64,000 nucleotides of DNA from the NCBI GenBank assembly GCA_017625935.1, contig JAGALA010000032.1, forward strand, positions 16,744 to 80,743, in the 5' to 3' direction. The stretch comes from Clostridia bacterium. GTDB lineage: Bacteria; Bacillota; Clostridia; Oscillospirales; CAG-272. Positions 1,472-40,055 of the stretch are shown here, one piece after another (within the stretch, counting starts at the first letter, position 1; each line of letters begins with the position of its first letter). The notes below the pieces were generated by a model. It made no database searches. It was given only the letters and a program-made list of their open reading frames with translations, and was not told the origin of the DNA. The position numbers and the translations under genes were made by a program.

Positions 1472-1588
1472 AAAGTCTCCCGTGTTAAATAATGCTATTT
1501 TTATATTGAATAATCTCTTGAACCATTATTAAAATTATGATAGCATAAAAGTGACAAAATGTCAAATAATTTTATTTTGGAGGACACT

Positions 1589-3145
1589 ATGAAAAAAATA
1601 TTGACTATTGTTTTTGCAATTTTGAGTATGTGCTGCTTGTTTTCGATCGCAGCCTCAGCGGTAGAGATTGACGGTGTTGATTATACCTTGACCGAAAGCG
1701 ATTCGGGAAATACCGCGGCAGTTTCAATCGCAAACAAAAAAATGCAAACAAAGGATGTAGTTATTCCGCAAACAGTTACTTATGAGGATAAGACCTATAC
1801 TGTAACAACAATTGTGCGACAAGCGTTTGAAGCTAACACCAGCATTGAAACACTTGTTATCGAAGCGAATTTAGGTGCAACAGGATTAAAGGGCTATGCT
1901 TTCAGCCAATGCTCAAACTTAAAGCAGGTTACCTTGCCAAGCAGCTTAACTGTAATTCCGGAAAGGTGCTTTAAACAATGTACGTCTCTTACAGAGTTTA
2001 CATTACCGAGCAATCTGCAAGAATTAGGTAGCTGTGCTTTTTGGAAATGCACAGGACTTACAAGTATTGATATTCCCGCATCTGTAACCGAAATCTCTGA
2101 TAAGGTGTTTGAAGAATGCACAGGCTTAAAATCAGTTAAAAGCGCATCACCTGTTATAGGCGAGAGAATGTTCTATAACTGTAAAGCGGTTGAAACCGCA
2201 AGCTTTACAAACACAGTCAGCATTGGAAAATATGCATTCCATTATTTTGGTGTAAAAAACGGTAATGGTGTTGTAGTATTACCCGATACCTTGACAACTG
2301 TTCAGTCAAATGCTTTTGAATTCTGCTATTTTAACACAGTTATTCTTCCTAAATCTATAACAAATGTTGCAGAAAACGGCTTCATTTATTTGAAAAATTA
2401 TTGTAAGACAATCAAATTTACAGGCACCGAGGAGCAGGCAAACGCACTGTTTTCGAGCTATGGAATTTCATATGAGTTAGTTAACCACTGCGAAATCTAT
2501 TACAACGGTATCCATGAAGATGACAACAATCCATGCATAATAAATTGTACTCGTTGCAATATATTGGGAGTTGCAGAAGAAAAACCTGTTCATAATCTCT
2601 CAGTAGCTATTGAATATGTAAGCTTTGACACAGCAGGCACAAAAACAGTTCGCTGCACAAACGCGGGCTGCACACACGTAGAAGCAACGGAAGCACCCGC
2701 ACTCTTTGAAAACAAGGGCTACTCTGCGGCTGAATACGCAGGCGGCGGTATGTCAGTAGGCTTTAAGGTAAACAAGGCGGCAATTACAGAGTACGAGGAG
2801 GCGACAGGAAAGACCGTTAGCTACGGCGTGTTCGCGGTTTTGGCAGAGAAAATTGGAGCAAACGATATATTTGATTCCGAGGGCAAAGCCCTTGACGGCG
2901 TTATTGCCGCAGATATCACGGATACAGATTTTGATATTTTCAACCTTAAAATAGTAGGCTTTACGGGAGAACAGGTTGACAAGGATCTTGTAATGGGCGC
3001 GTACGTTGAAGTAAGTAAGGACGGCACGACCGAGTATGCATATTTACAGGACGCAACCCCCGAAAAGAATGAAAAATACTACTTTGCTTCTTATAATGAC
3101 GTAAAGGACATTCTTGATAACAAAAGCGCAGCAAGCGCACAATGA
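1589..3145 (+). CDS. secreted BspA-type leucine-rich-repeat protein with a C-terminal ~120-aa shared module
   Basis: ATG at 1589 is preceded by GGAGGA (1579-1584). Signal peptide MKKILTIVFAILSMCCLFSIAASA. Repeated (F)xxCxxLxx(V/I)xLP units of the LRR_5/BspA type. The longer 1559 start lacks an RBS. Confidence 0.75.
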   Translation: MKKILTIVFAILSMCCLFSIAASAVEIDGVDYTLTESDSGNTAAVSIANKKMQTKDVVIPQTVTYEDKTYTVTTIVRQAFEANTSIETLVIEANLGATGLKGYAFSQCSNLKQVTLPSSLTVIPERCFKQCTSLTEFTLPSNLQELGSCAFWKCTGLTSIDIPASVTEISDKVFEECTGLKSVKSASPVIGERMFYNCKAVETASFTNTVSIGKYAFHYFGVKNGNGVVVLPDTLTTVQSNAFEFCYFNTVILPKSITNVAENGFIYLKNYCKTIKFTGTEEQANALFSSYGISYELVNHCEIYYNGIHEDDNNPCIINCTRCNILGVAEEKPVHNLSVAIEYVSFDTAGTKTVRCTNAGCTHVEATEAPALFENKGYSAAEYAGGGMSVGFKVNKAAITEYEEATGKTVSYGVFAVLAEKIGANDIFDSEGKALDGVIAADITDTDFDIFNLKIVGFTGEQVDKDLVMGAYVEVSKDGTTEYAYLQDATPEKNEKYYFASYNDVKDILDNKSAASAQ

Positions 3146-3185: not shown

Positions 3186-5600
3186 ATGAAAATAAAACTT
3201 TTAATTACTGCTCTGTTCACATCCTTGCTGATTTGCTTTTTTGCGTTTTCGGCAAGCGCGGCTTGCTCAGATGAGCATAGCTACGAATATCACGTAGAGC
3301 TTAGTGAAGAGGGCTTTTTGGGTGAGATTACACTAAACGGTGTTTGCACTGCACCAAGGTGCTACTCAAAAACGACAGAAAAGATAAGTCCTATATTCAT
3401 TTATCGCGGTCATTCACACAATGAAAACAGCTACACTCAAGGTTATATCGTAAATCGCGAGTCACTTGCAGAATACGAGAAATTTTCGGGCGATAGCTTG
3501 GAGTTCGGCGCTGTTACGGCTACTGTCAGTGTTATAGGGGAGGGTAATCCTCTTGACAATGATGGAAATCCCGTTTCTGAAAAGGTAATGAGATGCGATT
3601 TTACAAATACAGATTATACATTTATCGATGTATGCGTAAAGGGGATCCCCGAGGATTTAAAAAATGAGGAATTTATTTGCTCTCTTTATGTTAAATCACG
3701 AGGAAGCATTACATACCTTGACAACGCAGTTGAAAAAACAAGCCGCGGAGCAAGATCATATAATGATGTTGAATCGGGCATACAAAAGGAAGAGCCATCA
3801 CGTAAGGAGCATACCGTAATTGACGGCGTAAGCTACCGTCAGCTTGAAATGTCCTTTGCTAAGGGTGCTTATTGGTCAAGTGGCGCACTTTCAGCAAGCG
3901 GTGCGGACCTAAATAAGAAATTCTGGGCTGCTGCCGTTCCGCTTTCCCAAAAGGAGCTTCCCGTTGGCTCAATAATTATTCTTGATTGCGAAAATTATTG
4001 GCAATACAGAATTGATAAGGATGCAACGCGCGGAACAAATACAAAGCAATCAGTTCTCAAAATAGATGAGGATTGGTGGGGTACTGCAAAAACAGCATCC
4101 TTTACTCTTTCAATGCACAAAACTGAAAATACAACAAGCAGTCCAAGCGTTGACCTTTCAGGCCTCACAGATGCAGATTTGAAAAATGCACTTAAAATTT
4201 ATGTTCCTGTAACTGAAACAGTTAGTGAGGAAAAGACCTACACAAAGCAGGATTGGGACGATGACGGCGCATTAAAGGTGCTTTTAATCGGTAATAGCTT
4301 TTCACAGGACACCTGCTATCTTTCATTCCAAGCAGCAAAGTCTATGGGAATTGAGGACGTTAAAATTGCTAACCTTTATATAGGTGCGGGAAGCATAAGC
4401 GATCATATATATAGACATAAGCAGGGTGCAACTGCTTCCTTCCAGCAAAGCACATCAAAAGGCGGTTGGTCAAGTACCAATGCAACGCTTGAGACTGCTG
4501 TAAAGAGTGAAAATTGGGACTTTATCGTGCTTCAGCAGGTTAGCTCACTTAGTGGTGAGGCTTACTCATTTGAATCTGTAAATACGCTTGTTGATATTAT
4601 CGAGCCTATGTGTCCATCAGCGCGCTTAGCTTGGAATATGACCTGGGCATACCAAAGCACCTTTGATGATGCACGCTTTGACCGCTACGACAGAGACCAG
4701 GCAAAAATGTATCAAGCGATTATTTCAGCAACACAGTCAAAAATCGTAACAAACGACAGAATTGAAATTATTGTTCCAACCGGTACGGTAATTCAAAACG
4801 TAAGAAGCTCTTATATCGGTGATACTCTTACACGCGATGGCTACCACCTAAACGAATCACTTGGCAGACAAATTGCCTCTCTTGCTTTGGTGCATACCTT
4901 GACGGGTGTATCAATCGACGGTGTAAATACTACAAATTACAATAAAATCACAGATGAAAATGCTCTATTGGTGGCGATTGAAGCAATTAAAAATGCAACC
5001 AAAGCTCCTTTTGAGGTAAGCGAGTCACAATATAAGGACGAGAGTGAGGCTGTTCCTCCTGAAAACCCTGATATTAACGAGGGTGGCGACAACACAGGCG
5101 GCAGTACAGGTGGTGACAACACGGGCGGCAGTACAGGTGGTGACAACACAGGAAACGAGGGAGCTGACACTCCAAGCACAGAAATCTCCGGCTACACGCA
5201 GCTTACCGTAAGTGAAATGGAGGTAACAAGGGGTCAGTATTACAATTCAAACAACGGTACCATTTCAAAAGGAACTAATGTTTGCTATCCCGGCTACTAT
5301 ACAATAAAGAAGTTTACAAAGGAAACCTTGCCTGTCGGCTCCAAGATTTTCTTGGCAGCGGGATGGCAATACCGTTTAATTGTAAAGGACGAAAACGGTA
5401 AATATTCAAACAGCTATGTTAAGACAACTGAGGATAAGTACGTGGAAATCACCGAGGAATGGTGGAGCGGCCGTAATGAAATTTGCTTTACCGTTTCTGC
5501 AAAGGATCACGCATATGGCAAGGTGCCAACAACCGACTTGACAGCTGAAGAGGTTGGCACAAGCAAGTTTATTATCTACATTCCGATATTCAGCAATTAA
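3186..5600 (+). CDS. secreted DUF4886 (SGNH-hydrolase-like) domain protein
   Basis: 804 aa with a signal peptide ending FSASA. The central segment KVLLIGNSFSQDTCYLSFQAAKSMGIEDVKIANLYIGAGSISDH matches the DUF4886 signature. That domain is flanked by two copies of an ELPVGS...WQYR...E(D/E)WW(G/S) module. Confidence 0.65.
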   Translation: MKIKLLITALFTSLLICFFAFSASAACSDEHSYEYHVELSEEGFLGEITLNGVCTAPRCYSKTTEKISPIFIYRGHSHNENSYTQGYIVNRESLAEYEKFSGDSLEFGAVTATVSVIGEGNPLDNDGNPVSEKVMRCDFTNTDYTFIDVCVKGIPEDLKNEEFICSLYVKSRGSITYLDNAVEKTSRGARSYNDVESGIQKEEPSRKEHTVIDGVSYRQLEMSFAKGAYWSSGALSASGADLNKKFWAAAVPLSQKELPVGSIIILDCENYWQYRIDKDATRGTNTKQSVLKIDEDWWGTAKTASFTLSMHKTENTTSSPSVDLSGLTDADLKNALKIYVPVTETVSEEKTYTKQDWDDDGALKVLLIGNSFSQDTCYLSFQAAKSMGIEDVKIANLYIGAGSISDHIYRHKQGATASFQQSTSKGGWSSTNATLETAVKSENWDFIVLQQVSSLSGEAYSFESVNTLVDIIEPMCPSARLAWNMTWAYQSTFDDARFDRYDRDQAKMYQAIISATQSKIVTNDRIEIIVPTGTVIQNVRSSYIGDTLTRDGYHLNESLGRQIASLALVHTLTGVSIDGVNTTNYNKITDENALLVAIEAIKNATKAPFEVSESQYKDESEAVPPENPDINEGGDNTGGSTGGDNTGGSTGGDNTGNEGADTPSTEISGYTQLTVSEMEVTRGQYYNSNNGTISKGTNVCYPGYYTIKKFTKETLPVGSKIFLAAGWQYRLIVKDENGKYSNSYVKTTEDKYVEITEEWWSGRNEICFTVSAKDHAYGKVPTTDLTAEEVGTSKFIIYIPIFSN
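5082..5153 (+). repeat. in-frame 27-nt tandem repeat (2.7 copies) encoding a GGDNTGGST linker
   Basis: ggtggcgacaacacaggcggcagtaca (5082-5108), ggtggtgacaacacgggcggcagtaca (5109-5135), and a partial third copy at 5136-5153. Confidence 0.9.
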
Positions 5601-5610
5601 GGAGGTTAAA

Positions 5611-5787
5611 ATGAAAAAATATATTAAGCCAAGTATTGAGCTTGAAATGCTCGAAACCAAGGATATAATGACTACCTCCGGCATTGTTGACAACGGTCAA
5701 AGCTCTTATGAGGATGAAAACGGCAATATCATTTCCGGTCAAAAGGGCACATTTTCCAGCTGGTTTGAAAGCATTTTCAAATCATAA
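5611..5787 (+). CDS. small acidic peptide P1 (58 aa), member of a 3-copy family in this window
   Basis: AGGAGG lies 6 nt upstream of the ATG, which starts 11 nt after the stop of the 804-aa gene. The N-terminus MKKYIKPSIELEMLETKDIMTTSG is paralogous to the peptides at 27959-28108 and 31931-32092. A terminator follows. Confidence 0.55.
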   Translation: MKKYIKPSIELEMLETKDIMTTSGIVDNGQSSYEDENGNIISGQKGTFSSWFESIFKS

Positions 5788-13185: not shown

Positions 13186-13220
13186 TAAAAAAGCTTCCCG
13201 AAAAATCGGGAAGCTTTTTA
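13186..13220. terminator. bidirectional terminator between convergent surE and the RNase gene
   Basis: 10-bp stem AAGCTTCCCG (13191-13200) / CGGGAAGCTT (13207-13216), flanked by an A-run and a T-run. Confidence 0.7.
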
Positions 13221-14984
13221 TGCGTATAAGAAAATTTTTCTTGTATCAATATAGTAAATAATGCTGACTGTATCGATTTGTGATGTGATTTTTAAGTCTG
13301 TAAGAGCTGTTGGAACGTATGGCGTTGGGTTATAATCGCTTTTGCTTGAAAGCTTGCCGCCGCCCGTTATGTTGCCGAACATTTCGCCCCATCCGCCGTA
13401 ATAGTTTAGGTATTCCTGGAAGTCGTTATAGTGATTGTAGGTATAGAAAACGTAGCGCTCGTCTGCGTCTATTGTGCCGTTTTGGTCGTCATCCTCGCAG
13501 CAGTAAACGATACGTGCCGCGCCGCGCGTGATTATTATGCCGTCATTATAATCCGTTACATAATATGCAGGGTCGCAGTCGGTGCCTGTTGTGCCAATAT
13601 CCATTTCGTAGTAGCTTAACGTGCCGCCACAGCCCGAGATATTGGGAAGCTCCGGCTCGTATGGGTACTTTGAGGTGCTGCCCGAGAAGGATGTGTGATT
13701 TAAACGCAGGTATATTCCCCACTCGCTTGACGTCGGCTTGGTGTTCTTTGAGGCGGTTTGGTTTGCAGGTGGCTCGCCAAATGCAAAGACGTGTGCCGCA
13801 ACCTCCTCGAGCATTATGTACGCTGCGCCCTTGTATATTTCCATTACAACGTCACCGTATGCATCAACAACGTAGTAAACACAGCCGTCCTCGGAATAAA
13901 GCATTTCGCTATTGCGGACGAATTTGCCGTTTTGCTTTGGCTGGAACGCAGAGATGGTCGGTGCTTGGTCCTGTGCGCCGATTGTGCCCGACATTAAGTT
14001 GTGCAAGGTTCTAAAGTACGCGTCCTCGTAGCTTTGCGCGGGCTTGTAGTTTGCGTAAAATTCATCCACGTCAACGTCGATATAGGGGTCCTCGGTATCG
14101 GTTGGCGCATCGGGATTATAAAAATCGATAATTGTTGCATTGTCAACCTCTAACGTGCCTTTATAATTTCGGAGTGTGCCGCTAATGAGCACGACGTCAC
14201 CCGATTTGAGTGTTGAGCTTGAAACGCTTGAGCCGTCAAGCATTGTGGATTTATAGACGTAGATTGTGCCCGTTTCGTCATAAACGTACATTCTGCCTTC
14301 AGTTAGACTGCTGATTTGCTTTACGGTTGCGACGATGTAGTACGTTTCCTCTGATGAAGCGCTTGTGTACTGCTCTGCTAACTCAAGTGCCTCTGAAACG
14401 GTGATGGTGTCATAGCCTTGGGCAAAATCGTTGTCTGTGATGTCATCATCGGTTGTGCCGTCATTTCCGCCACCTGTGGTGTCGTCGTTTTCGCCGCCCG
14501 TTGTGTTGTCGTCACCTGTGGTATCGTCATTACCGTCGCCTGTAGTGTTGTCGCTATCGTCATTGTCGGTATCGTCGGTGATTGTGTCACTATCGGTGCT
14601 TGGGGTATCCGTGTCGATGCCCGGGACAATTATAATAACGCTGTCTGAATAGTCACCAATTGTTGCCTTGACAACCGAGGTGCCGTATGAAAGCACGGTT
14701 ACAACGCCGCCCTCGACCTTAACGCAGCTATGGCTGCTTGTCCACGTAACCTTGCCCTCTATTTCCTCATTCAAGGTATATGTCAAGGTGATTTTGTCAC
14801 CCTTGTCAAGTGTATAGCGGTTTGCACCGTTTATGTAAAATGCTTTTTCTCCGCTGTCGGTGCTTGACTCGGTGTCGGTATTGCCTGCGCTGTCTGTGCT
14901 GCCAAGCAATGTACAGGACGAAACGCTAAGAAGCATTGATATAATCAAGACCACCGAGACTAAGATTTTAGATAATTTTTTCAC
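13218..14984 (-). CDS. tethered lipoprotein with an OB-fold module and a C-terminal barnase-like (microbial RNase N1/T1/barnase family) domain
   Basis: 588 aa. Lipobox LSVSSC and a T/D/N-rich linker. OB-like segment YYIVATVKQI...MYVYDETGTIYVY...ISGTLRNYKGTLEV. The C-terminus LSYYEMDI...RGAARIVY...YVFYTYNHYNDFQEY aligns with barnase TWREADI...NSDRILY...LIYKTTDHYQTFTKI. Confidence 0.6.
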   Translation of the reverse strand: MKKLSKILVSVVLIISMLLSVSSCTLLGSTDSAGNTDTESSTDSGEKAFYINGANRYTLDKGDKITLTYTLNEEIEGKVTWTSSHSCVKVEGGVVTVLSYGTSVVKATIGDYSDSVIIIVPGIDTDTPSTDSDTITDDTDNDDSDNTTGDGNDDTTGDDNTTGGENDDTTGGGNDGTTDDDITDNDFAQGYDTITVSEALELAEQYTSASSEETYYIVATVKQISSLTEGRMYVYDETGTIYVYKSTMLDGSSVSSSTLKSGDVVLISGTLRNYKGTLEVDNATIIDFYNPDAPTDTEDPYIDVDVDEFYANYKPAQSYEDAYFRTLHNLMSGTIGAQDQAPTISAFQPKQNGKFVRNSEMLYSEDGCVYYVVDAYGDVVMEIYKGAAYIMLEEVAAHVFAFGEPPANQTASKNTKPTSSEWGIYLRLNHTSFSGSTSKYPYEPELPNISGCGGTLSYYEMDIGTTGTDCDPAYYVTDYNDGIIITRGAARIVYCCEDDDQNGTIDADERYVFYTYNHYNDFQEYLNYYGGWGEMFGNITGGGKLSSKSDYNPTPYVPTALTDLKITSQIDTVSIIYYIDTRKIFLYA

Positions 14985-15091
14985 AATATTCCTCTTTTGT
15001 ATGCCTGACAGGAATGGAACAAATCATTCCTGCCAGGCATCTATTTTCACTATATTGTATCATTTTTAGGCGGAATAATCAAGAGGTTTAT

Positions 15092-15122
15092 AAAAAACCA
15101 CGCCCGAGGGCGTGGTTTTTTT
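15092..15122 (-). terminator. Rho-independent terminator after the 1217-aa gene
   Basis: CCACGCCC (15098-15105) / GGGCGTGG (15109-15116) with A/T runs on both sides. Confidence 0.7.
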
Positions 15123-15134
15123 ATTTAGGAAATA

Positions 15135-18100
15135 TTAACCCCAAAATGCGATTGAGTCAATCATTGCTCTAACACCGCCAGAAACAGTTGTGAAATTAAT
15201 TGTTTTGGTGGTTGTTGTGTCGATTTCGATTGCTGTGTACTCACCGTTGTTTGAAGCGGATGTAATTGTGTAATCAACACCGTTTACATTAATCTTTGTG
15301 CTGTTAGCCTTATATTGAGCAACCATGATAACTACCTTATCAACGTCGTCAGCTACAGTAAAGCTAAAACTACCAACAACCTTAGATGTACCAAGCTTAA
15401 TTGCGGAGTTACCCTTTGCGTCAGTTGCAGGACCGTATACCTTGCTCATATTTTCAAGAGTGAGCGTATAGCTGCCTTCTGTATAGGACTTAGATGCACC
15501 GAGGTCATTACCGTCAACGTGCTCGGCTGCTCCGTTTGCACCAAATTCGAACTTTGCAAGCTCCTTTTGGGAAGCTGCTGCATTTTGGTCAAATCCACAA
15601 ACAGTGCATATACCGTCTGCACCGATGTTGTGGCCAAGAGCCTCAGTCATAACTGCTTCGCAAAGTGTGCATTTTTGAGCCGTTGTACATGTTGCTTCAG
15701 AGCCTGCTACACAAGTATGCTTCTTAGTGATTGTAACCTCTGAACCCTTTTGAGCGATTTGGTTTGCACCGCTATATGTGCCGATTTCACCCTTAACTGA
15801 AACCTCGTCACCAACTGAAACTAACGTTGTGATTCTGAAAAGAAGGATTTGGTTGTCTTCTCCGTCAGAGAGCCACACATCCATATTGTTGTACTGTGTG
15901 CTCCAAGAGGACTTGATTTCTGAAATTGTACCTGTAAGAATAACCTTCTTGCCAACAGGTGCTGTAAGTGCGTCTTCAATGCTGATTGAGTAGTAGTAGT
16001 TAGGATCGTCAATGCCACAGCCGTTAGCGCAAACGCCGTCTGTGTATGAGTGACCAAGTGCTTCTACTTCATTGCCGGTATATGAGTGACCGCAGTCTGG
16101 TACTGTACATGTATATGTTGTGAAGCCAGCCGCTGTACATGTAGGAGCTGTAACTACCTCATTGTACACGTGCTCGTGATCTGTAGCGCCGCAAGCTGTG
16201 CAGGTGCCTTCTACATATGAGTGACCGAGAGCGTCAACGTATGTATCAACTACAATGTCACCGCATGAGCATGTGTGTGTTGTGTAGCCTTGCTCTGTGC
16301 AAGTAGGAGCTGTTACTTCGTCTGTATATTCGTGTGTGTGTGCTGTAGCCAAGCTGATTTGAAGCATAGCGTTAAGCGTTGCATCAACCTTTACACCACC
16401 AACGGTTGTGAATTTTCTTGCGAAGTCAGTGCCGAATGTGTAGTTCTCGCCTTCGAGCACCTTGTAGAATACCTTGTTTGTAGCATCAAATGAGAAGCCA
16501 ACCTCAGGAGCAGTATCTACGTATACTGCATTCTTGTGTGTGCCGCTAACAACGAGGTCCATATACTTTGTTGCACCACCTACTGTGAGGGTGATGTAGT
16601 ATGTATCATCTGTAGGACCTGCTAAAACTGTAATCTTAGCTGCAGCTGCTTGAGTTGAAACTGTAGCCATGTAGTACTTAGCGTTACCTGTTGCCATTTC
16701 GCCTGTGATGTAGCAAAGTGCGCCGTCTTGTGTCATAGCGAAGAAGTATTCGCTGCCAACAACCGGGCTAACTGCTTCGAATGGGATTTCGTCAGAGCTG
16801 TCGCCGCCGTTACCGTCAATTGTAGCTGTTGCGCCTTGAGCAACCTGTCTTTCTCCGTCCCAAGTAGCCATTTCACCCTTAACTGTGATTATATCACCGA
16901 TTTCAACCTTAGTTGAAAGTCTGAAGAGGTAAAGCTTGTTGCCGTCTGCGTCTATAATTGTAACGTTCATGTTACCATATTGCTCGTTCCAAGCACCCTC
17001 GATAGAGCAAACTGTACCTGTAACCTTAATCTTTGTTCCGTCTGCTGCTGAAAGTGCCTCAGTAATTGTCATTTCTGTGTAGTTGTCAGGTGTAGATGCG
17101 CCCTCGTTGTCAGGGTGAACCTTATGGTCAACTACCTTTGCGTTCTTAAGCTGAACGTCTGTGTTGTACTTACCAACTGAGGAAAGAACTGTGATGGTGT
17201 CACCCTTGAGTGGCTTAGGATCCATCTTGTCGTATCTTACCTTACCTGTTGCATCGTAAAGACCGTAGATGTAAAGTCTGAATTCGCCTGATTCATCTAC
17301 CAAGTAGAGGTTACCGTAAGTATCGTTTGCTACGCTTTCAACGATACCTGTGATGTAGTATATTTCGTCTGTGTAGTTGTTTGAAGCCATTGGGTCGCCA
17401 ATGTTGTTTGCTTCTTCAATTGTGATTGTTGAAATCGGTTTAACTGCGATTTCGTAATCCTTTGTCTTTGAAACCTCACCGCTTGTAACGGTTGCTGTAA
17501 GCTTTACAGTCTTAGTTTCCTCAGGAATTGTAACTGTAAGTGTTGCGCCGTTCAAGGTTGCAACGTCTGCGCCGTCAACAAGCTCCCAAGAGATTGAAAC
17601 GCCAACAAGGCTTGAGAATGTTGTTGGAAGTGTTGTGTCGCCTGCAACTTGAATCATACCGGGAATGGTTGTGTTTTCAAGTGTGATGTCAACTTGTACG
17701 TCGTCAGGCTTTTCTTGTGCAACAATGTTTGCAAGAGCATCCTTTGAAACAGGCATAAGGTACATATTGCTGTTATAAACTGCGATAATACCTGTTACGT
17801 CTGCTGCGTTGTAGAAGTTGTTGTTAAATGTTGATGTGAGTGTTCTGCCATCATCCTCTGTAATGCAGTTTGATGAGGTTGAAATTCTGAAGTATGTCTT
17901 GTGGTTACCGATTTCGAAGTTGTGGTAACCGTTTGATTCGCTGTATTGAAGAAGTGTAACGCCCTTGATTGTAACGAGCATACCGTTTAAGTTTGTAAGC
18001 GCCTTATCATCAAGTGAAGCTGCGCCGATAACTGCATCGGTAAAGTCAACAGGAGTAACTGTATTGATTGTTTCGTCAATAACGATTACGTCTGCGTTAA

Positions 18101-18788
18101 CAAGCTCGAAAGTGCCGTTATAGTTCTTCTTTTCGCCTCTAACCTCAACGGTCATACCAACCTTGATATTTGTGAGGTCTGTCTTTGAATTGTATACGTA
18201 GTAACCGCCGTTACCGTTAAGGTCTTGGAGATACAAGCTCTCTTCCTTTGTAGAGGTGTTATGTGTCTTTGCCATAATACCTGTTACGATACCTTGAACG
18301 ATAAGTGCTTCACCGTCTTCTGCTGCAACGTATTGGTCGTGTGTGTTAACTGAGAATACAGGAACAGTCAAATTGAAGCTGCCCATCTTCTTCTCGCCCT
18401 TATCATTCTCAATTGAGAACTTAAGTGTGTAGTTGATGGCTGTGTCGCCAAGCTCAGGAATGTTTACAACGTAGCTTGTTCCATCCTCTGATTCTGTGAT
18501 AGTGATAGCGTCATTGTCTGTTGACCATGAGATATTGAAGATTTTGTCGCCGATTGGTGCATTCTTCATAACCTCAAAGCTTGCTGCTGTTACGTTAAGG
18601 GTCTTGTATGTAAGCTTAACATAGTCATAAGCCGCTGCAAGATCCTCATCGGGTTGACTACCTGTTGAGGTGTCTGTGTTGTCGCTTCCGCTGTCCGTGT
18701 TTGTGTTTGTGTCGCCACCGCAGGAGGTGAGAACAAAGAGACCGCAAACGAGAACAAGAACGAGAAGCAAGAGTGAAAGTTTTTTCAT
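15135..18788 (-). CDS. 1217-aa lipoprotein with multiple OB-fold-like modules and Cys-rich repeats (putative nucleic-acid-binding surface protein)
   Basis: Lipobox VLTSCGG and a T/N/D/S tether. At least five modules fit the pattern (I/V)xGxVxxI...YxN(M/L)x(V/L)xDxxG...(L/I)Y(R/G)... such as KVTGTVCSIEGAWNEQYGNMNVTIIDADGNKLYLFRL. There are two PTCTxxG(Y/F)TT(H/Y)TC...ALGHSY repeats. No catalytic motif was recognised. Confidence 0.6.
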   Translation of the reverse strand: MKKLSLLLLVLVLVCGLFVLTSCGGDTNTNTDSGSDNTDTSTGSQPDEDLAAAYDYVKLTYKTLNVTAASFEVMKNAPIGDKIFNISWSTDNDAITITESEDGTSYVVNIPELGDTAINYTLKFSIENDKGEKKMGSFNLTVPVFSVNTHDQYVAAEDGEALIVQGIVTGIMAKTHNTSTKEESLYLQDLNGNGGYYVYNSKTDLTNIKVGMTVEVRGEKKNYNGTFELVNADVIVIDETINTVTPVDFTDAVIGAASLDDKALTNLNGMLVTIKGVTLLQYSESNGYHNFEIGNHKTYFRISTSSNCITEDDGRTLTSTFNNNFYNAADVTGIIAVYNSNMYLMPVSKDALANIVAQEKPDDVQVDITLENTTIPGMIQVAGDTTLPTTFSSLVGVSISWELVDGADVATLNGATLTVTIPEETKTVKLTATVTSGEVSKTKDYEIAVKPISTITIEEANNIGDPMASNNYTDEIYYITGIVESVANDTYGNLYLVDESGEFRLYIYGLYDATGKVRYDKMDPKPLKGDTITVLSSVGKYNTDVQLKNAKVVDHKVHPDNEGASTPDNYTEMTITEALSAADGTKIKVTGTVCSIEGAWNEQYGNMNVTIIDADGNKLYLFRLSTKVEIGDIITVKGEMATWDGERQVAQGATATIDGNGGDSSDEIPFEAVSPVVGSEYFFAMTQDGALCYITGEMATGNAKYYMATVSTQAAAAKITVLAGPTDDTYYITLTVGGATKYMDLVVSGTHKNAVYVDTAPEVGFSFDATNKVFYKVLEGENYTFGTDFARKFTTVGGVKVDATLNAMLQISLATAHTHEYTDEVTAPTCTEQGYTTHTCSCGDIVVDTYVDALGHSYVEGTCTACGATDHEHVYNEVVTAPTCTAAGFTTYTCTVPDCGHSYTGNEVEALGHSYTDGVCANGCGIDDPNYYYSISIEDALTAPVGKKVILTGTISEIKSSWSTQYNNMDVWLSDGEDNQILLFRITTLVSVGDEVSVKGEIGTYSGANQIAQKGSEVTITKKHTCVAGSEATCTTAQKCTLCEAVMTEALGHNIGADGICTVCGFDQNAAASQKELAKFEFGANGAAEHVDGNDLGASKSYTEGSYTLTLENMSKVYGPATDAKGNSAIKLGTSKVVGSFSFTVADDVDKVVIMVAQYKANSTKINVNGVDYTITSASNNGEYTAIEIDTTTTKTINFTTVSGGVRAMIDSIAFWG

Positions 18789-18878
18789 GATGTGCTCCTT
18801 TTTCTTTTTTTGTTAGCTGTTTTATATGAAAATTGTAAATAAAATTTACAAAAATCAACTAATTAATAAGTAATTGAA

Positions 18879-27897: not shown

Positions 27898-27930
27898 GGA
27901 AAAGGCTACGCGAAGTCGCATAGCCCTTTT
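27898..27930 (-). terminator. terminator after peptide P2
   Basis: GGCTACGCGA / TCGCATAGCC hairpin (1 mismatch), followed on the minus strand by TTTTCCTTTTC. Confidence 0.5.
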
Positions 27931-27958: not shown

Positions 27959-28108
27959 TTACCATCCGAAATCCTTCATATTAAATGAAAAATCTCCGTT
28001 AACCGTACCGTCAGCATTAACCGTTTCATTTTCTTGAATTTCGCCGGATGCTAAAATTTCTTCTGCTTCTACAACGATTTTTTCAAACGTTGGGGATTCG
28101 TATTTCAT
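27959..28108 (-). CDS. small acidic peptide P2 (49 aa), same family as P1 and P3
   Basis: Below the ORF-track cutoff and translated by hand: MKYESPTFEKIVVEAEEILASGEIQENETVNADGTVNGDFSFNMKDFGW. GGAGGT lies 7 nt upstream. It starts 29 nt after the CotH-protein stop. Confidence 0.5.
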   Translation of the reverse strand: MKYESPTFEKIVVEAEEILASGEIQENETVNADGTVNGDFSFNMKDFGW

Positions 28109-28137
28109 TTTAGTTACCTCCTTAATTTTCAAGTTAA

Positions 28138-31100
28138 TTATTCAGCTTTCTCTGGTGCGTAGTATGTGAGCAAGTAAGCGTAGCTTTCGTTGAGATAATT
28201 CTCGATGTAAGCAAGATGCTCTTCCCAAGTTGCGTATTTTCTGAACTGTTCGGGAACGCTCCAGTTACCACTTGCTTGTGATGCATTTACGTTGCCGATA
28301 AGGTTCCACTTTGTAAAGTTCTTTTCGTAAGCTTCCTTGTGTGCTCTTGCGTATGCAAGGTCGTAAGCGATTGAGTCTTTTATTCCCTTTTCGTTTGCAA
28401 CAAGCTCCTCATATACAAGTGTTCTGAATTCTTCAAATTCAAGAAGCTCTCTCATCCAGTCATTACGCTCTGCCGTCCAAAGTCTTTCTGTGTTGGAGAA
28501 GATTTGCCAGCCTGTGTTGCTTTCCTTATGTGTTACGTTACCTACTGCCATATCGAAGTCCCAAAGAGGAGCTGCAACGAGCTTGCCGTTTACATCCTTA
28601 TAATAATATACGCTTGAATAGTTAACGTCAGGGTTCTTAAAGAGGTCGAAAATGATGTATGCCTGTGCAAATGACTTAACGTCGATTAGCTCACAAAGCT
28701 TTTCATAATTTCCTTCAACAGTGGCATCTGCATTGATTGCATTGTGGCACTCTTGTAAATATCCTTTAATGTAGTCAAGGTAAGGCTTTGCCTTATCCGC
28801 ATCAAACTCACCATTCTCATCAAAGAACACATCCTCGGGGTCTTTAATTACATATGGCTTTTGTCCGCCGCTAATCGTAACAAAAACGTCGCCGTCCTTT
28901 GTATAGTTAGGAAGGTTTTGGTTTGCGCCATCAGCTGCCCAAGCATCCATTTCAACGAGGTAGCCAATGCTATCGGGGTCGATCATGCCGTCGCCGTCTT
29001 TGTCAACGCCCTTGTCCTCAGCAGTAATGTTTACACGGTTGTCCTTAACCTGAATTTGCTCGCAGAGGTAATAAACGCCTCTGTACTCACCGTTTAAGTA
29101 AAGCTCAACGCTTTGTCCCTTTGAGGTGTAGCCAAGCTCGGACATTGAAAGTCCTGCATTGAGTGCGAGCATATTACGAAGGAGTGAGTAGTCTCTTGCA
29201 TCAGCGAGAAGCACCCAGGTTTTTTCCTTACCGTAGCCAAAGAGGTCTTGCTTTTTGTCAAACTTGAACTTGTATGGCTTCTTATCAAATTTTTCCCATG
29301 TGGAGTTTCCTCTGCCCTTGATTTCAGCAACGGCTGAACCAACGCTGTCACCCTTACCTGAGTTGTCGAAAAGTGTAATTTCACAGTTAACGTAATTCTC
29401 AAGTGAGTTGATAGCTGCGCCGTTTTCGGTGTTGATTGTGATTACAGGCAAGCCTGTGCTATTTGGAACGAAGCTTGCGGTAAGTGTTGCTTTCTTTTCA
29501 GCAGTAACTGTAATTTCAGGAGTTTGCGTGCCGTCACTCCAGCAAGCGAAGGTGTAGCCTTCCTTTGCAACCGCCTTTACAGTTGACGTTGATTGACCGT
29601 CATAAACCGTCTGTGAGGTTTCACCCTCTAAAGTACCCATTGTTTCGTCGCAAGCGAAGGTGATTTGGTACCTTGGTGTGCATGCCTCTGCAATATCAGC
29701 AAAGGTAATTGGAGTTGCATAAGCCTGTTGAGAAATTTCGTTAGATGCATTTGAGTAGAGATATTCTACCTTTTTGCCGTCGGTTACGAATGCGCAAATA
29801 ACTGCAGTCTTTGCGTAGTTGCTTTCATTAAAGCCGTCAACAAAGAGGTTGAATGAATCGTATTTTTTGCTAACCTCGCGAACAACCGCGGTAGCAGTGC
29901 CGTTTACTGTAAAGTCGGGGTTAACAGGGTTAAACGCGCTTATATCGTCACCCTCACCCGGGATTGCGATAACAAGGCCGTATGAGAGGTTTTCAAGGTA
30001 TGCTTGTGTTTTCTTGTCAACTGAATAGCCAACTGTTACGCGCTCGCCGCCAATTTGTGCGGAAAAGCCCTTATATGTAAGGAGCGGAGCGTACTCTGTT
30101 GCTTCTCCCTTGTCGCCACATACGGAGCAAACCTCGCCAACTACAAATGAAGTCAAAGCATCCTTATATGTGTTTGTAGCAACGTAGCTATGCTCAAGCA
30201 TATCAACCTCGCTGTCAACGTATGTGTCGCCGCACGCCGAGCAGGTATTGGTTGTATAGCCCTTTGATGTGCAGGTTGGCTCGGTAACCACCTTATCGTA
30301 GCTGTGTCCGAGCGCGTCAACGTTATTGCCAACGTAACTCTCGCCACATACTGTACAGGTATAGGTTGTATAACCGCCGTTTGTGCAATCCGGTGCGGTT
30401 ACTGTCTCTGAATAGTTATGCTCTGTGCATTCAATTTCCTTAACGAAACCACAGTTGTTGCAGGAAATATCGTTTTCGTCATCGAATACGTGTGCATCTT
30501 TATCAATAGCAATTTCAACCGAATATTCCATTGAGCAAGCCGCGCAAATATAGGTTGTTACACCCACGGTTGTGCAGGTTGGTGCGATTGACTCAACAAC
30601 ATCACCCATTGTGTGGTTTTCATATGATGACACACAATCAGGTGTGTTATAAACGATAACGTGGTGTGTTTGGCTATTGTTAATTGGGAAATTATCGTAT
30701 TTATTCTTGTCGGCAATATATTCTTCGTAGCTTATAATTGCGCCAACTCTTTGTCTGAAGTTTTTGTCAGATACCTGTTGAACGCTCTTTACATAGTTCG
30801 CGTCACCGTGAACGAAAAATACGACGCTTGAACGGAAATCAACAAATCCCTTATAATTTTCCGAATTAATGTCTTGTCCTCTTTGTGAGTCAAACATTTG
30901 GAAAGCATTACCGCCTGTTAATATAAGGTTCCCGGGAACATGTATATACTTAAGCGGGAACGTTGTTATTTTGTTGACATCTCTAACATAAATGTATTCC
31001 TTGTTTAAATATCCAATTTTGGTCATATTCTCACCAAAAATAATGGTTTCAAACTGTGTACAACGGAAAAATACATTATTTGTAAGCTCTGTCATCGTGC

Positions 31101-31839
31101 TTGGGAACTTGACATAGCTGAGTGACATACAGTTTCTGAAGTCTTGGTCGTCACCTGCACTTGTTTTTGTTGCCTTAAGTGTTGTAATTCCTTCAGGAAT
31201 GACAAGCTTTTTAAGGTTCGCACAGAATTGGAACGCCTTGTTCGGGAATTGTGTATAAAGAACAGTATTGTCCTCCCACTCAAGCACTCTGATTGAGGTG
31301 CGGTAACAGAATTGATCAGGAATTTCCTCTAAAGTCTTTGGCAAATAGAGGAACAAAAGATATTTTCCATTTGCCACTTGACAGTATTCATTATACTGTG
31401 GGTTGTTTCCCGATGGAGGCGTGATTGCCGTTGTCATAAATAGCGCAGTGTCAAATCTCTTAATGTCCATGCCAAAGAAGTTTACACTGACAACATTGTC
31501 TGCGGTAACGTCGCCCGTAAAGGTAAATTTACCGTCTGTAATAACGCCGGCGTCAGCGGTTTTGATGCTTTTAACGGTAATATTGCGCACGTCGGTTCCG
31601 TTGTCGTCAGCTACAACGTACCAAGTGAGCGAATTGCCGTTTGCATCGGTTTTTGCGAGGGAGCCAGATTCAGTTTTAATCAACTCATACTTCTTAGCGC
31701 CCTCAAATTCAGCAGTTGCACTGTAGAGTGGATTACCGTCTTCATCGCTATAAACGTAGGTTGTTGCACCAACAGCAATAGCGAAAAGACAAACGAGCAC
31801 AAGTGCTAAAACAGCTGAAATAAGCAGTTTCTTTTTCAT
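28138..31839 (-). CDS. 1233-aa secreted protein: BspA-type LRR, Cys-rich repeats, shared ~120-aa module, and a C-terminal CotH (atypical kinase-like) domain
   Basis: Signal peptide ...FAIAVGA. CotH signature GRGNSTWEKFDKKPYKFKFDKK...WVLLADARDYSLLRNMLA...VELYLNGEYRGVYYLCEQI...PLWDFDMAVGN. Confidence 0.8.
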   Translation of the reverse strand: MKKKLLISAVLALVLVCLFAIAVGATTYVYSDEDGNPLYSATAEFEGAKKYELIKTESGSLAKTDANGNSLTWYVVADDNGTDVRNITVKSIKTADAGVITDGKFTFTGDVTADNVVSVNFFGMDIKRFDTALFMTTAITPPSGNNPQYNEYCQVANGKYLLFLYLPKTLEEIPDQFCYRTSIRVLEWEDNTVLYTQFPNKAFQFCANLKKLVIPEGITTLKATKTSAGDDQDFRNCMSLSYVKFPSTMTELTNNVFFRCTQFETIIFGENMTKIGYLNKEYIYVRDVNKITTFPLKYIHVPGNLILTGGNAFQMFDSQRGQDINSENYKGFVDFRSSVVFFVHGDANYVKSVQQVSDKNFRQRVGAIISYEEYIADKNKYDNFPINNSQTHHVIVYNTPDCVSSYENHTMGDVVESIAPTCTTVGVTTYICAACSMEYSVEIAIDKDAHVFDDENDISCNNCGFVKEIECTEHNYSETVTAPDCTNGGYTTYTCTVCGESYVGNNVDALGHSYDKVVTEPTCTSKGYTTNTCSACGDTYVDSEVDMLEHSYVATNTYKDALTSFVVGEVCSVCGDKGEATEYAPLLTYKGFSAQIGGERVTVGYSVDKKTQAYLENLSYGLVIAIPGEGDDISAFNPVNPDFTVNGTATAVVREVSKKYDSFNLFVDGFNESNYAKTAVICAFVTDGKKVEYLYSNASNEISQQAYATPITFADIAEACTPRYQITFACDETMGTLEGETSQTVYDGQSTSTVKAVAKEGYTFACWSDGTQTPEITVTAEKKATLTASFVPNSTGLPVITINTENGAAINSLENYVNCEITLFDNSGKGDSVGSAVAEIKGRGNSTWEKFDKKPYKFKFDKKQDLFGYGKEKTWVLLADARDYSLLRNMLALNAGLSMSELGYTSKGQSVELYLNGEYRGVYYLCEQIQVKDNRVNITAEDKGVDKDGDGMIDPDSIGYLVEMDAWAADGANQNLPNYTKDGDVFVTISGGQKPYVIKDPEDVFFDENGEFDADKAKPYLDYIKGYLQECHNAINADATVEGNYEKLCELIDVKSFAQAYIIFDLFKNPDVNYSSVYYYKDVNGKLVAAPLWDFDMAVGNVTHKESNTGWQIFSNTERLWTAERNDWMRELLEFEEFRTLVYEELVANEKGIKDSIAYDLAYARAHKEAYEKNFTKWNLIGNVNASQASGNWSVPEQFRKYATWEEHLAYIENYLNESYAYLLTYYAPEKAE

Positions 31840-31930: not shown

Positions 31931-32092
31931 CTATTTATTTGGATTAAAGAGGTTTGAAGCGTCGATGATGAAGTCTGCAACTCCGTCTGCAACGTTTTCT
32001 ACCTTAACGTCCTCTTCTACCTCGCCTGAAGCTGAGAGGATGTCCTCTACCTCAATTTCCATTCTTTCATATTTTGGGGAAACGTATCTCAT
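31931..32092 (-). CDS. small acidic peptide P3 (53 aa), same family as P1 and P2
   Basis: Translated by hand: MRYVSPKYERMEIEVEDILSASGEVEEDVKVENVADGVADFIIDASNLFNPNK. The ATG lies 1 nt after the TAA of the 824-aa gene (TAATATG). GGAGGAGG sits inside the upstream gene's last codons. Confidence 0.55.
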   Translation of the reverse strand: MRYVSPKYERMEIEVEDILSASGEVEEDVKVENVADGVADFIIDASNLFNPNK

Positions 32093-32093
32093 A

Positions 32094-34568
32094 TTATTCC
32101 TCCTCCTTTGGAAGCTTGCTATAAGAAACTGTATGATACTTGTTACCGCTTATCGGTGCTTTTGGTTGAACGTATGATACCCTTGCGCCATCATTTACGT
32201 ACATACCCATTACGATTTCAGCCGCCATAAGCTCCTCTGTATTGAAGCCAACGAGCTTAAGGTTGAGTGCTTCAAGCTCCATGCTTGATGTTTCCTTGCT
32301 GATTACTCCGCTAACGGTATTTCCGTTTGCATCAAATATATCATTGTTTCCAATTACCTCTGATGCAGCCGCAAATACACCGTATACAAGCTCAGTGCCT
32401 GTAAATTCCTCGTATTCTGCGATTGCTTCATTATTCATTTTGTAGCCAACGGTAATTCCGCCAAGCTCTGCCTCTGATGCTGAGTAGCCAAGTGCAACGA
32501 AGAGCGCGTCAACGCTTTCTTCATTTGTTTCGCCACAAGCGCACTCTGTTACCTTTACGCCTGCTTTGCCATAGCCGTTTGCATAAGCTATGCTTGATAC
32601 AGTGTCAAAGCTATGTGCTTCAACTGTGTATACGTCACCGTTTGCTGTTGCATGCAAGCCGTCTGCTAAGAAGCTTGTGTTAGGACCCTCGGACACGTTG
32701 TTTGCAGGGTTGAAGCCAACAAATGTACCGCCGTAAACTGTGATTGTGCCACGGTTGTCGTCGTTTTCGTTAAGAGCCCATATGCCTTCGCCTGCTATGA
32801 ACGTACCGCCGTTAATTGTAACTGTACCGCCGTTCTTTGTGTAGATAAGGTCGTTTTGGTGGTTAACGTCGGTTGTAGATGAGTCGCCGCCAACAGAGTA
32901 AGAACCGCCGTTGATAACAGCGTGACCGCCGTTTGCCCAAACTGCACACCACGAGCCAACACCCGCTGTGCCTGCATTAACTGCAAAGTTGCCGTTTAAG
33001 GTAAGTGTTGCGCCGTTTGTTACAACAAATGCGTCGCCTGTTGACTCAATTGTGATACCCTCGATATTGAGTTCTGTATCCTCTGTTACTGTTACAGGAG
33101 CAAGGAGAACAATTGTGTCGCCTGCCTTTGCATTTGCAAGTGCAGCTTCGAATGATGCATAGTATGTATTACCGATTGCAGCTGCTGCGATATAATCTCT
33201 TACCTCAAAGTAGTCACAATTTGCACATTCGTTTGTTTCTTGTCCTACTTTTCCGTATACAGGAGCTGTTGTAAGAGTCCAGCCGCTCATTGAGTGTCCA
33301 AGTGCTTCGGTTACGTTATCTGTATAGCTATCGCCGCAAGCTGTGCAGGTGTAGGTCGTGTAGCCGCCGTTTACACAGTCGGGGGACGTTACCTTCGAAG
33401 AAAGTGCAAGGTGATTTGTTTCAACTATGTTCTCACTCTTGGTAACACTTGCGTCCGTTGTCTTAGTAGCTGAAAGCTGCAAGCTTAATTCACATGCGCT
33501 ATCATACGCAAAGCTACATTCGCTAATCAAGTACTGTGTTGCACTACCGATTGTTGTTTGCTTGCCAATTGACGTGGCAGTCGTTGTGTCTGCGTAATAG
33601 TAAAGGTCAAACTCGCCCCAGTTATCAAAAAGGTTTGTTCGGCTCTTTCCGTTTACAACGTCCTTAGAAAGAATGATTACAGTATTGATGTTTGCCTTAA
33701 TGCCTACATCATTTCCGTTATTGAGGTTGCGAAGCTCTTTTGTGTCAGGACCTACAATTAAGGTTTCAAAATAATTATTAAGACTAAATTGCTTATTTCC
33801 TTCGCCGTTTTGAATACCAACGAGCTTAACGGCGTTTATATAAACCGTACCGCCAACATGTGCGTTTGAAAACGCAAATACACCGAAGGTTTCAAGCTTT
33901 TTGGGCCAAATAATTGTGTTTTCCTGTCCACCGGTAACATTTTTGCCGCCGATTCGCGTGCTTGCGAACGCTTGTGGGCTAATGTTCTTTACGTTGTAAA
34001 GATTGATTGGCTCACCGTTGTAATTCCATACGGCTTGGCTTACGTTATTTGCATTGCCGGAAAACATAAATGCAGATTGATCAATGTTTTCGGTATTGTC
34101 AAACTTAATATAGACATTATTAATTGCCGTACAGCCAAAGAAGCATTCGTGCATAAAGTGATTAATCGGCGAGGTGATATTCAAGGTTTTAAGAGATTTG
34201 CAATCTCTCATTAAAACTCTCGGAATTACCGTGATATACTCACTTGTAATGTTTAGCGTTTGAACGCTTGATTTTTGCTGAATTGAGCCAATGTCAAACA
34301 ATTCGTTGTAATTCGGTATATTACCCTTAATTGTATCAAAGGCAGTTACCTTATACACAATACCGTCGACCGTTATTGTGCTTGGAATTGTCACCACCGT
34401 AGCGCCCTGAATAAAGTCGTTAACAGTAGCGTACGGCTCTTCGCCATCGTGCAGAGTATACTTAACGCCATTTTCTGTGTCATCGTACGTTGCCGCACCA
34501 ACGGTGACTGCAAGCAAGCAAACGAACAAGCACAGCATCAAGCTGATAAGTAAGATTTTCTTTTTCAT
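32094..34568 (-). CDS. 824-aa secreted protein: BspA-type LRR, Cys-rich repeat, right-handed beta-helix-like region, and the shared C-terminal module
   Basis: Start moved to the ATG at 34568 (RBS AGGAGA; MKKKILLISLMLCLFVCLLAVTVGA signal peptide). Gly/Asn/Thr-rich segments such as INGGSYSVGG, TINGGTF and TVYGGTF suggest a beta-helix. Confidence 0.75.
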   Translation of the reverse strand: MKKKILLISLMLCLFVCLLAVTVGAATYDDTENGVKYTLHDGEEPYATVNDFIQGATVVTIPSTITVDGIVYKVTAFDTIKGNIPNYNELFDIGSIQQKSSVQTLNITSEYITVIPRVLMRDCKSLKTLNITSPINHFMHECFFGCTAINNVYIKFDNTENIDQSAFMFSGNANNVSQAVWNYNGEPINLYNVKNISPQAFASTRIGGKNVTGGQENTIIWPKKLETFGVFAFSNAHVGGTVYINAVKLVGIQNGEGNKQFSLNNYFETLIVGPDTKELRNLNNGNDVGIKANINTVIILSKDVVNGKSRTNLFDNWGEFDLYYYADTTTATSIGKQTTIGSATQYLISECSFAYDSACELSLQLSATKTTDASVTKSENIVETNHLALSSKVTSPDCVNGGYTTYTCTACGDSYTDNVTEALGHSMSGWTLTTAPVYGKVGQETNECANCDYFEVRDYIAAAAIGNTYYASFEAALANAKAGDTIVLLAPVTVTEDTELNIEGITIESTGDAFVVTNGATLTLNGNFAVNAGTAGVGSWCAVWANGGHAVINGGSYSVGGDSSTTDVNHQNDLIYTKNGGTVTINGGTFIAGEGIWALNENDDNRGTITVYGGTFVGFNPANNVSEGPNTSFLADGLHATANGDVYTVEAHSFDTVSSIAYANGYGKAGVKVTECACGETNEESVDALFVALGYSASEAELGGITVGYKMNNEAIAEYEEFTGTELVYGVFAAASEVIGNNDIFDANGNTVSGVISKETSSMELEALNLKLVGFNTEELMAAEIVMGMYVNDGARVSYVQPKAPISGNKYHTVSYSKLPKEEE

Positions 34569-34638
34569 TTTGTTTTTTCTCCTTATAATTTTTTGCGCTA
34601 TAATATTAACATATATGTGGAAAACTGTCAAGTTGAAC

Positions 34639-34654: not shown

Positions 34655-34907
34655 CAAATGATTTTTGTGAAAAGTGCACAAAGTTTCGTTCTATTTCTAT
34701 GATTTTCAACATTTTTTCAAAGGTGTTTAATAGGTATTTATTGGTATTTCTTTGGTTAGTTTGCACAACGGTGGTTGAAATGTTAATTTTTTGTAAATAA
34801 TGCGTTTTTACGCACGCAAACAGAAAAAACTCTTAGCTTATCTTTTTTGTTGCAATTTACGGTGGGATATGGTACAATGCTTTTATCAACTTATGCGAGG
34901 TTTTACT

Positions 34908-40042: not shown

Positions 40043-40055
40043 TAAGGAGCATATT

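Follow-up and report, generated by a model that had tools for sequence, protein, structure and literature searches.

Three short open reading frames spread over a 64-kb stretch of DNA from a Clostridia bacterium (hereafter the window, meaning all 64,000 nucleotides analysed) share the beginning of their deduced sequences, and the question they raise is whether these are genes and, if so, what their products might do. A preliminary description, made from the sequence without database searches, had proposed that they could be RiPP precursors matured by genes located elsewhere or, alternatively, small partners of the adjacent surface proteins. Its coordinates and translations for the three are both correct: P1 encodes 58 aa (5611..5787, + strand), P2 49 aa (27959..28108, − strand), and P3 53 aa (31931..32092, − strand). 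Each has a ribosome-binding site of the AGGAGG type, as had been reported: AGGAGG at 5600..5605 (+) for P1, which overlaps the TAA stop of the upstream gene (5598-5600) and precedes the ATG at 5611; AAGGAGG at 28117..28123 (−) for P2, with its ATG at 28108; and AGGAGGAGG at 32099..32107 (−) for P3, within the 3′ end of the upstream gene, with the ATG at 32092. All three, and not two as had been stated, are below 60 aa when counted from the ATG; P1 is listed as a 77-aa frame solely via an upstream TTG start. P1 consists of a leader, MKKYIKPSIELEMLET, a conserved KDIMTTSG, and an acidic tail ending in TFSSWFESIFKS. The three peptides have a pI of 4.05-4.65 and, again in agreement with the earlier account, none contains Cys or a hydrophobic segment. 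In a six-frame motif scan of the window, P1, P2, and P3 were the sole matches.

One explanation would be that the frames are fortuitous, or that they lie in untranslated sequence such as part of a terminator region, and their shortness and the lack of a Pfam or NCBIfam family go in this direction. This explanation, to which we give next to no credence, is already contradicted by the comparison with relatives. Same-length orthologues of each peptide exist in metagenomes and MAGs (78-100% identity in the case of P1), the frames of P1-P3 are intact, and dN/dS is 0.17 for P1 versus L001 (dS 0.26), 0.19 for P2 versus L124 (dS 0.41), and 0.17 for P3 versus L124 (dS 0.30). Moreover, between P1 and a more distant relative, L046, the protein is kept despite saturation of the synonymous sites, and the hundreds of family members described below have degenerate codons, strong ribosome-binding sites, and a constant position. 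The conservation between orthologues covers the tails as well as the leaders; between the three paralogues in the window, the leader block is common and the tails have diverged. Because of the orthologues, the synteny with the upstream gene, the dN/dS values, and the family found by the profile, the shared block is not due to chance, and P1-P3 are confirmed as real genes under purifying selection (dN/dS about 0.17-0.19).

The family to which they belong is large. A profile made from P1-P3 and their orthologues, a search of the kind that the preliminary description had recommended, retrieved 368 clusters at 50% identity (HMMER, E<=1e-3, 1.84 billion proteins); nearly all the members are 32-84 aa long, and the match to the profile begins at residue 1. 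The shared N-terminal block that had been proposed therefore stands, and its exact form is to be revised: the consensus of the members anchored by Y..P is Y-x-x-P-x-[ILYM]-E-x3-[FLIV]-E-x2-D-[IV]-[ILM]-x2-S-G. All 148 anchored members, as well as P1-P3, have the Y and the P; the D is found in 139 and the S in 142 of the 148. Conservation ends sharply after this block of roughly 21 residues, just past the S-G, beyond which the tail is acidic and hypervariable. Using a degenerate DNA pattern for the block, at least 115 loci were found in GTDB species representatives; the hosts of the 115 listed are almost all gut or rumen Clostridia, among them Ruminococcus, Lachnospiraceae, Oscillospiraceae, Eubacterium, Blautia, Roseburia, and Coprococcus.

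Scans of P1-P3 and 146 family members against Pfam and NCBIfam gave no family, the closest echoes being weak, sub-threshold ones to the StsA and ryptide leaders; the family profile gave only chance matches to PDB chains, and a literature search for the peptide sequence strings gave no match. A leader of the double-glycine (PCAT) type was rejected on the basis of the pattern of hydrophobic positions. Two large proteins, P0075 and P0076, were likewise rejected as family members, since their scores are sums of weak matches to a repeat. Many short tails (e.g., L024, L061, L071, and L100) terminate in a motif resembling E-L-P-[FVI]-[IV]-P, and in L120 a Ser-rich secreted protein of 169 aa, encoded upstream of one peptide, terminates in IELPIIPVK. 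There is also a sub-branch of precursors that lacks the Pro (MEKYTKAQMEVIEFE.EDVITTSG) and has Cys-rich cores; its clusters (L150, 4814-6172; L161, 9731-11086; L171, 4049-5404; and neighbouring genes) contain, in addition, genes for a conserved protein of about 451 aa and for one of 314-323 aa.

What the block might be for is suggested by the genes that lie beside the relatives. In 23 of the 115 peptide-anchored GTDB loci listed, at least one HprK-like, PqqD, SpI-like, or NTP_transf_5 gene is found within 8 kb. The kinase candidate is a P-loop protein of roughly 245 aa with weak similarity to HprK/ScmC; the discrete PqqD protein (Pfam E=3.3e-18) has lasso PqqD chaperones as its top NCBIfam matches; the peptidase candidate is a signal peptidase I of the archaeal type, roughly 145-180 aa long (sigpep_I_arch, E=2.6e-9); the exporter, of roughly 560 aa, combines ABC_membrane and ABC_tran; and the NTP_transf_5 protein matches at E=3.5e-44. 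The order is frequently kinase, RRE, peptidase, exporter, NTP transferase (K-B-S-D-N), as in L013, L080, L082, and L174. A profile of the RREs matches the solved TbiB1, TfuB1, PbaB1 (9x90), and LppB (PDB 9x8z) structures; a single RRE against PDB chains gave no match. When the remaining genes in the 23 cluster loci were surveyed, the ABC exporter was the sole recurrent family in the 25 listed of 121 matched families.

The association is also found in the reverse direction. When metagenomes were scanned with a kinase alignment as the only anchor, 80 loci were obtained, of which 50 contain leader matches, all on the strand of the kinase; the loci with leaders also encode the exporter, NTP_transf_5, the peptidase, and the RRE. 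With a profile of the leaders of P1-P3 and of their close orthologues, and of no other peptides, about 59 short ORFs in the kinase-anchored loci score at E<1e-3 (best E 1.4e-9), and every match lies on the kinase strand (19,477 six-frame segments). A narrow profile of the cluster-resident leaders, which is dominated by the Pro-less sub-branch, gives P1 a weak score (E=0.042 in the window) and fails to set P2 or P3 apart, a point against linking P1-P3 to these clusters. The earlier proposal that the Y-x-x-P leader serves PqqD-like RREs, with the maturation genes elsewhere, is thus supported at the level of the family, since genes for discrete PqqD RREs stand beside those of relatives, along with genes for the HprK-like kinase, the SpI-like peptidase, the exporter, and NTP_transf_5. 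A separate observation concerns two loci (L009, 66-2140; L127, 5883-7957) in which the genes for a GHKL-type membrane histidine kinase and a 251-aa response regulator, divergently oriented, adjoin a tandem array of four to five precursors with maturation genes, which hints at peptide-linked regulation.

This set of genes is that of the linear polyphosphorylated peptides (LPPs), a class described as recently as 2026, in Bacilli, by Popov et al. (Nat Commun 2026, PMC13381572). In the LPP system, the HprK-like kinase is called LppK and the discrete RRE LppB; the leader peptidase, LppS, is SpI-like, LppD serves as the exporter, and LppN is the NTP transferase. The LppA precursors, of 35-200 aa, have a conserved N-terminus, YxxPxVLxHQxIxFETxxS, and variable C-termini (PMC13381572). 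The RRE is bound by the YxxP, LppS cuts after F-E-T in an RRE-dependent manner, and several phosphates are carried by Ser3 of the core (PMC13381572). The study centred on Bacilli, and its few Clostridial SpI/RRE entries have the precursor given as "ND"; its main text mentions neither Clostridia nor orphans nor surface proteins (PMC13381572).

P1-P3 are therefore best regarded as probable RiPP precursors of a Clostridial branch of the LPP type, an assignment in which all of the chemistry, the point of cleavage, and the existence of the pathway in this genome are inferred. The Y-x-x-P-x-hydrophobic N-terminus would dock as a beta-strand on a discrete PqqD-type RRE, which would hand the peptide to the HprK-like kinase; the nearly invariant Ser of the [ST][AT]SG sequence would probably be phosphorylated. 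The NTP_transf_5 protein may attach a further group, and the acidic product would be released by the MsbA-like ABC exporter. As to the cleavage, the Bacillus LPP precursor (..VYHRPTVLDHQQVRFET/AQS..) aligns with P1 (..KYIKPSIELEMLET/KDIMTTSG..) given a three-residue gap; the cut is therefore most likely to fall after [FLIV]-E-[TAV], which is aligned with the F-E-T of LppA, and phosphorylation is most likely at the conserved Ser. The predicted cuts are after T16 in P1, A15 in P2, and V15 in P3. Another possibility is that cleavage may occur after the I-I-T. Cleavage after the SG, which the preliminary description had suggested, is by analogy with LppA the least likely, because the conserved Ser, probably phosphorylated, would stay in the product.

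The preliminary description had compared the peptides with Firmicute lasso precursors of the paeninodin type. There is a likeness between the leaders and those of rumen and Firmicute lasso peptides, such as MKAWNTPVIETLEINETAA/GG, and the RREs associated with the family score highest against lasso B1 models. However, the pathway that matches is the LPP type, which has no cyclase: Asn_synthase is absent from the 25 families listed (of 121 matched) when the remaining genes in the 23 cluster loci are considered, although single occurrences below these 25 are possible; Transglut_core, considered here rather than the lasso-specific PF13471 of Pfam, occurs in only 2 proteins of these loci; and the candidate leader peptidases are SpI-like rather than B2. 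Moreover, RREs of the paeninodin type favour WxxP, the YxxP being the LPP form (PMC13381572). Inspection of the tails argues in the same direction, many of them lacking an acidic residue (Asp or Glu) at core positions 7-9 wherever the core might plausibly start (e.g., SGPETDIA and SGDDNALPPMG), and P2 and P3 have no Thr ahead of the S-G (the −2 feature of lasso leaders), with the reservation that acid-rich tails make the core test weak. That P1-P3 are lasso precursors is very improbable.

If P1-P3 are precursors of the LPP type, their maturation genes are not close by. A tblastn search of the 64-kb window with the five maturation proteins gave nothing beyond a generic GT8 similarity at 38.5-39.9 kb, and no kinase, RRE, SpI, or NTP_transf_5 genes were found in about 10 kb to the left (L207) or about 9 kb to the right (L209), where there are metabolic genes only. 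Nor were maturation genes in view in the sampled loci that have tail subfamilies like those of P1, P2, and P3, which weighs against the LPP-type assignment. As there is no maturation gene in the window or its flanks, P1-P3 are orphan precursors, which would be matured in trans by genes at another locus. This absence over about 83 kb in and around the window, together with the very patchy gain and loss of LPP clusters in Bacilli (PMC13381572), could also be explained if the orphans were relics of a pathway whose maturation cluster has been lost and whose processing has ended. Against this explanation, which we consider improbable, are the intact frames, the strong ribosome-binding sites, and the dN/dS of about 0.17-0.19 of P1-P3, the retention of the leader block in three paralogues despite diverged tails, and the retention of orthologues in several related MAGs.

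Another characteristic of P1-P3, and one that is not a usual trait of RiPP precursors, is their tight coupling to surface-protein genes. Each lies 40 nt or less behind a large gene for a signal-peptide surface protein (10, 29, and 1 nt for P1, P2, and P3, respectively) and is the last, translationally coupled cistron behind a Sec-exported protein; the signal-peptide-like N-termini of the three upstream proteins were judged from the translations, and the domains were taken from Pfam (DUF4886; LRR_5; and LRR_5, Listeria-Bacteroides repeat, and CotH). P1 starts 10 nt past the stop of the gene for an 804-aa DUF4886 signal-peptide protein with an N-terminal copy of a domain termed X (3186..5600, +), itself preceded by the gene for a 528-aa LRR_5 surface protein of the BspA type that has domain X at its C-terminus (1559..3145, +), which heads the same-strand run that ends in P1. 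P3 starts 1 nt past the stop of the gene for an LRR_5 signal-peptide protein of about 825 aa with a C-terminal domain X (32094..34571, −; the start at 34571 was chosen by the position of the signal peptide, the frame being open up to a GTG at 34766). P2 starts 29 nt past the stop of the gene for a 1233-aa signal-peptide protein with LRR_5, the Listeria-Bacteroides repeat, domain X, and CotH (28138..31839, −). The minus-strand run of the LRR_5 gene, P3, the CotH gene, and P2 is bracketed by a promoter-like site (34603-34631, −) ahead of the LRR_5 gene and by a hairpin resembling an intrinsic terminator, with 13 pairs and a T run (27900..27929, −), 30 nt past the P2 stop. The pair formed by the DUF4886 gene and P1 is conserved in the related contigs L001-L003 and L207, and the run of the LRR_5 gene, P3, the LRR_5/CotH gene, and P2 in L124-L126.

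Domain X, of roughly 150 aa, is common to four large secreted proteins of the window (2591-3142 and 3273-3800 on the + strand, 29680-30132 and 32097-32639 on the − strand) and has no Pfam match. In other genomes it occurs within proteins that adjoin peptides of the window type. Its AlphaFold2 model is a beta-sandwich (mean pLDDT 73.7), for which no significant match was obtained in the PDB (best E 4e-3, TM <=0.36). As a universal partner of the peptides it was rejected, being found only beside the subfamilies of the window.

The remaining genes of the window are housekeeping ones for histidine and branched-chain amino-acid biosynthesis and nucleoside salvage, with, in addition, an ABC sugar transporter, a fucosidase, two GT8 glycosyltransferases, and an acyltransferase. 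The two GT8 genes and that of the acyltransferase-domain protein lie at 38265-41588 (+), some 4 kb away from the P3 operon; L077 has a GT8 gene directly 3′ of a peptide gene and a PqqD gene. No evidence ties the GT8 genes of the window to the peptides. Cys-containing modules of about 35 aa (..PDCTNGGYTTYTCTVCG.SY....ALGHS..) are repeated in three large proteins of the window, at residues about 409-560 of the product of 28138-31839 (−), about 391-460 of that of 32094-34571 (−), and about 817-1047 of that of 15135-18788 (−), with up to 64% identity over 36 aa between the three proteins (BLASTP). At 13218-20315 (−), genes for proteins of 588 and 1217 aa with matches to the OB-fold (tRNA_anti-codon), the larger of which additionally matches aBig_2, lie beside that for a 478-aa protein whose orthologue in L124 has a weak SNase match; these genes may be a surface nuclease set.

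The coupling is found throughout the family. When peptides at contig edges are excluded, 68 of 107 sampled peptides (about 64%) follow a large protein gene on the same strand at a distance of at most 40 nt, and a further 21 of the 107 lie 41-200 nt downstream. This tabulation of upstream neighbours, another step that had been proposed, shows that the association behind the alternative put forward in the preliminary description is both real and strong. The proteins encoded upstream of the 68 peptides have a median length of 630 aa and reach 2352 aa; the domains found include Flg_new, LRR_5, Laminin_G_3, DUF4886, F5/8 type C, DUF285, CotH, and similar ones, and no RiPP enzyme domain was found in the upstream proteins of the sampled peptides. 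A crude test for signal-peptide-like N-termini is positive for 36 of the 40 upstream proteins that are complete, compared with 90 of 369 other proteins from the same loci. The arrangement of surface protein and peptide also exists within biosynthetic clusters, since in L174 the order is a 1070-aa protein, the peptide, kinase, RRE, peptidase, and exporter, and L132 and L163 are similar. In L211 (MAG GCA_045660785.1, 1-6617), three consecutive modules, each of an LRR_5-protein gene and a 55-aa-peptide gene with 0-nt spacing, occupy 6.6 kb, so the module has been amplified there. Finally, the classes of tail follow the C-terminal region of the upstream protein, and tails within one class vary greatly.

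These observations could be taken to mean that the peptides mainly serve the surface protein encoded upstream as small partners (adaptors, chaperones, or anchors), which we think unlikely as an account of their main role; that the variable tail binds the surface protein and the N-terminus a common cellular machine, not necessarily a RiPP pathway, seems to us no likelier. The proximity of 68 of the 107 peptides to a large gene, the excess of signal-peptide-like upstream proteins, their typical surface domains with no RiPP enzymes, the tail subfamilies that follow the C-terminal region, the conservation of tails between orthologues, and the three zero-spacing modules of L211 are all in favour. 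However, the block is a leader of the RRE type, and the profile made from the window finds precursors within K-B-S-D-N clusters; the tails are very diverse within one C-terminal class and go down to 6 residues past the S-G; the peptides have no signal peptide, whereas their supposed partners are Sec substrates; and the tracking of tail and C-terminus may be plain co-inheritance. Moreover, a partner function is compatible with, rather than opposed to, the LPP-type explanation that we prefer, and the two readings are not mutually exclusive.

The link with surface proteins suggests that the products of the LPP-type precursors act with, or on, these proteins. It is conceivable, if rather doubtful, that, in gut and rumen Clostridia, large surface proteins of the BspA/LRR type and others have LPP-type peptides as their dedicated partners outside the cell. 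Equally tentative is the idea that each surface-protein gene has its own precursor as its coupled last cistron, and, with the same reserve, the acidic product, phosphorylated and perhaps glycosylated, might bind, anchor, or regulate the surface protein at the envelope. If so, the RiPP would be a built-in accessory of the surface protein and not an antibiotic or a signal.

The analysis identifies, at the level of the family, the missing precursors of the Clostridial SpI/RRE/kinase clusters. Gut and rumen microbiomes contain very many members of this family, and most of the precursors are dispersed orphans, coupled translationally to genes for large proteins of the surface or adhesin-like type, even within biosynthetic clusters. 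The link between precursor and surface protein seems not to have been reported, having not been found in the literature, and it gives a testable lead on the function of the peptides, in surface-protein biology rather than antibiosis. Thousands of overlooked small genes would gain an annotation.

Several known systems share part of these characteristics. In the tapA-sipW-tasA operon of Bacillus subtilis, SipW cuts the Sec signal peptides of TasA and TapA; the operon differs in having no RRE, no kinase, and no small leader-bearing peptide. The prochlorosins (ProcA/ProcM) are similar in that many precursor genes per genome, with one leader and hypervariable cores, are scattered far from a single maturation locus; they differ in their lanthionine chemistry and Cys-rich cores, and have no systematic coupling to surface-protein genes. 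In the lasso systems of the paeninodin and pseudomycoidin type, a discrete PqqD (B1) RRE likewise reads an aromatic-x-x-P-x-hydrophobic leader, and HprK-like kinases and enzymes of the NTP_transf_5 type act on a Ser of the precursor; however, in the Clostridial cluster loci, neither a macrolactam cyclase nor a B2 cysteine protease was seen among the families listed and the peptidase is SpI-like, the leader has Tyr and not Trp, and many of the cores, by inspection, seem not to fit the ring rules.

The closest system is that of the LPPs, and here too there are differences. The Clostridial branch is known from genes alone, and its hosts are gut and rumen Clostridia, whereas those in the paper are Bacilli. 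Most of its members lie scattered behind surface-protein genes, one to each, rather than in capsule loci; the Bacillus LPP clusters are in loci rich in glycosyltransferases. The published LPP motif, P-x9-F-x-[T/A], does not occur in the Clostridial family, which has P-x6-[FLIV]-E-[TAV], i.e., three residues fewer before the triplet; this is followed by E-D-[IV]-I-T-x-S-G, and the Ser lies 7 residues past the triplet compared with 3 in the LPPs. The likenesses are nevertheless extensive: in both, the precursors are small, with a conserved N-terminus and a hypervariable C-terminus; both have a YxxP near the N-terminus, with Tyr and not Trp; both have a hydrophobic-E-T/A triplet with a conserved Ser shortly afterwards; and the clusters of the relatives contain the same five genes, often in the K-B-S-D-N order and without a lasso cyclase among the families listed.
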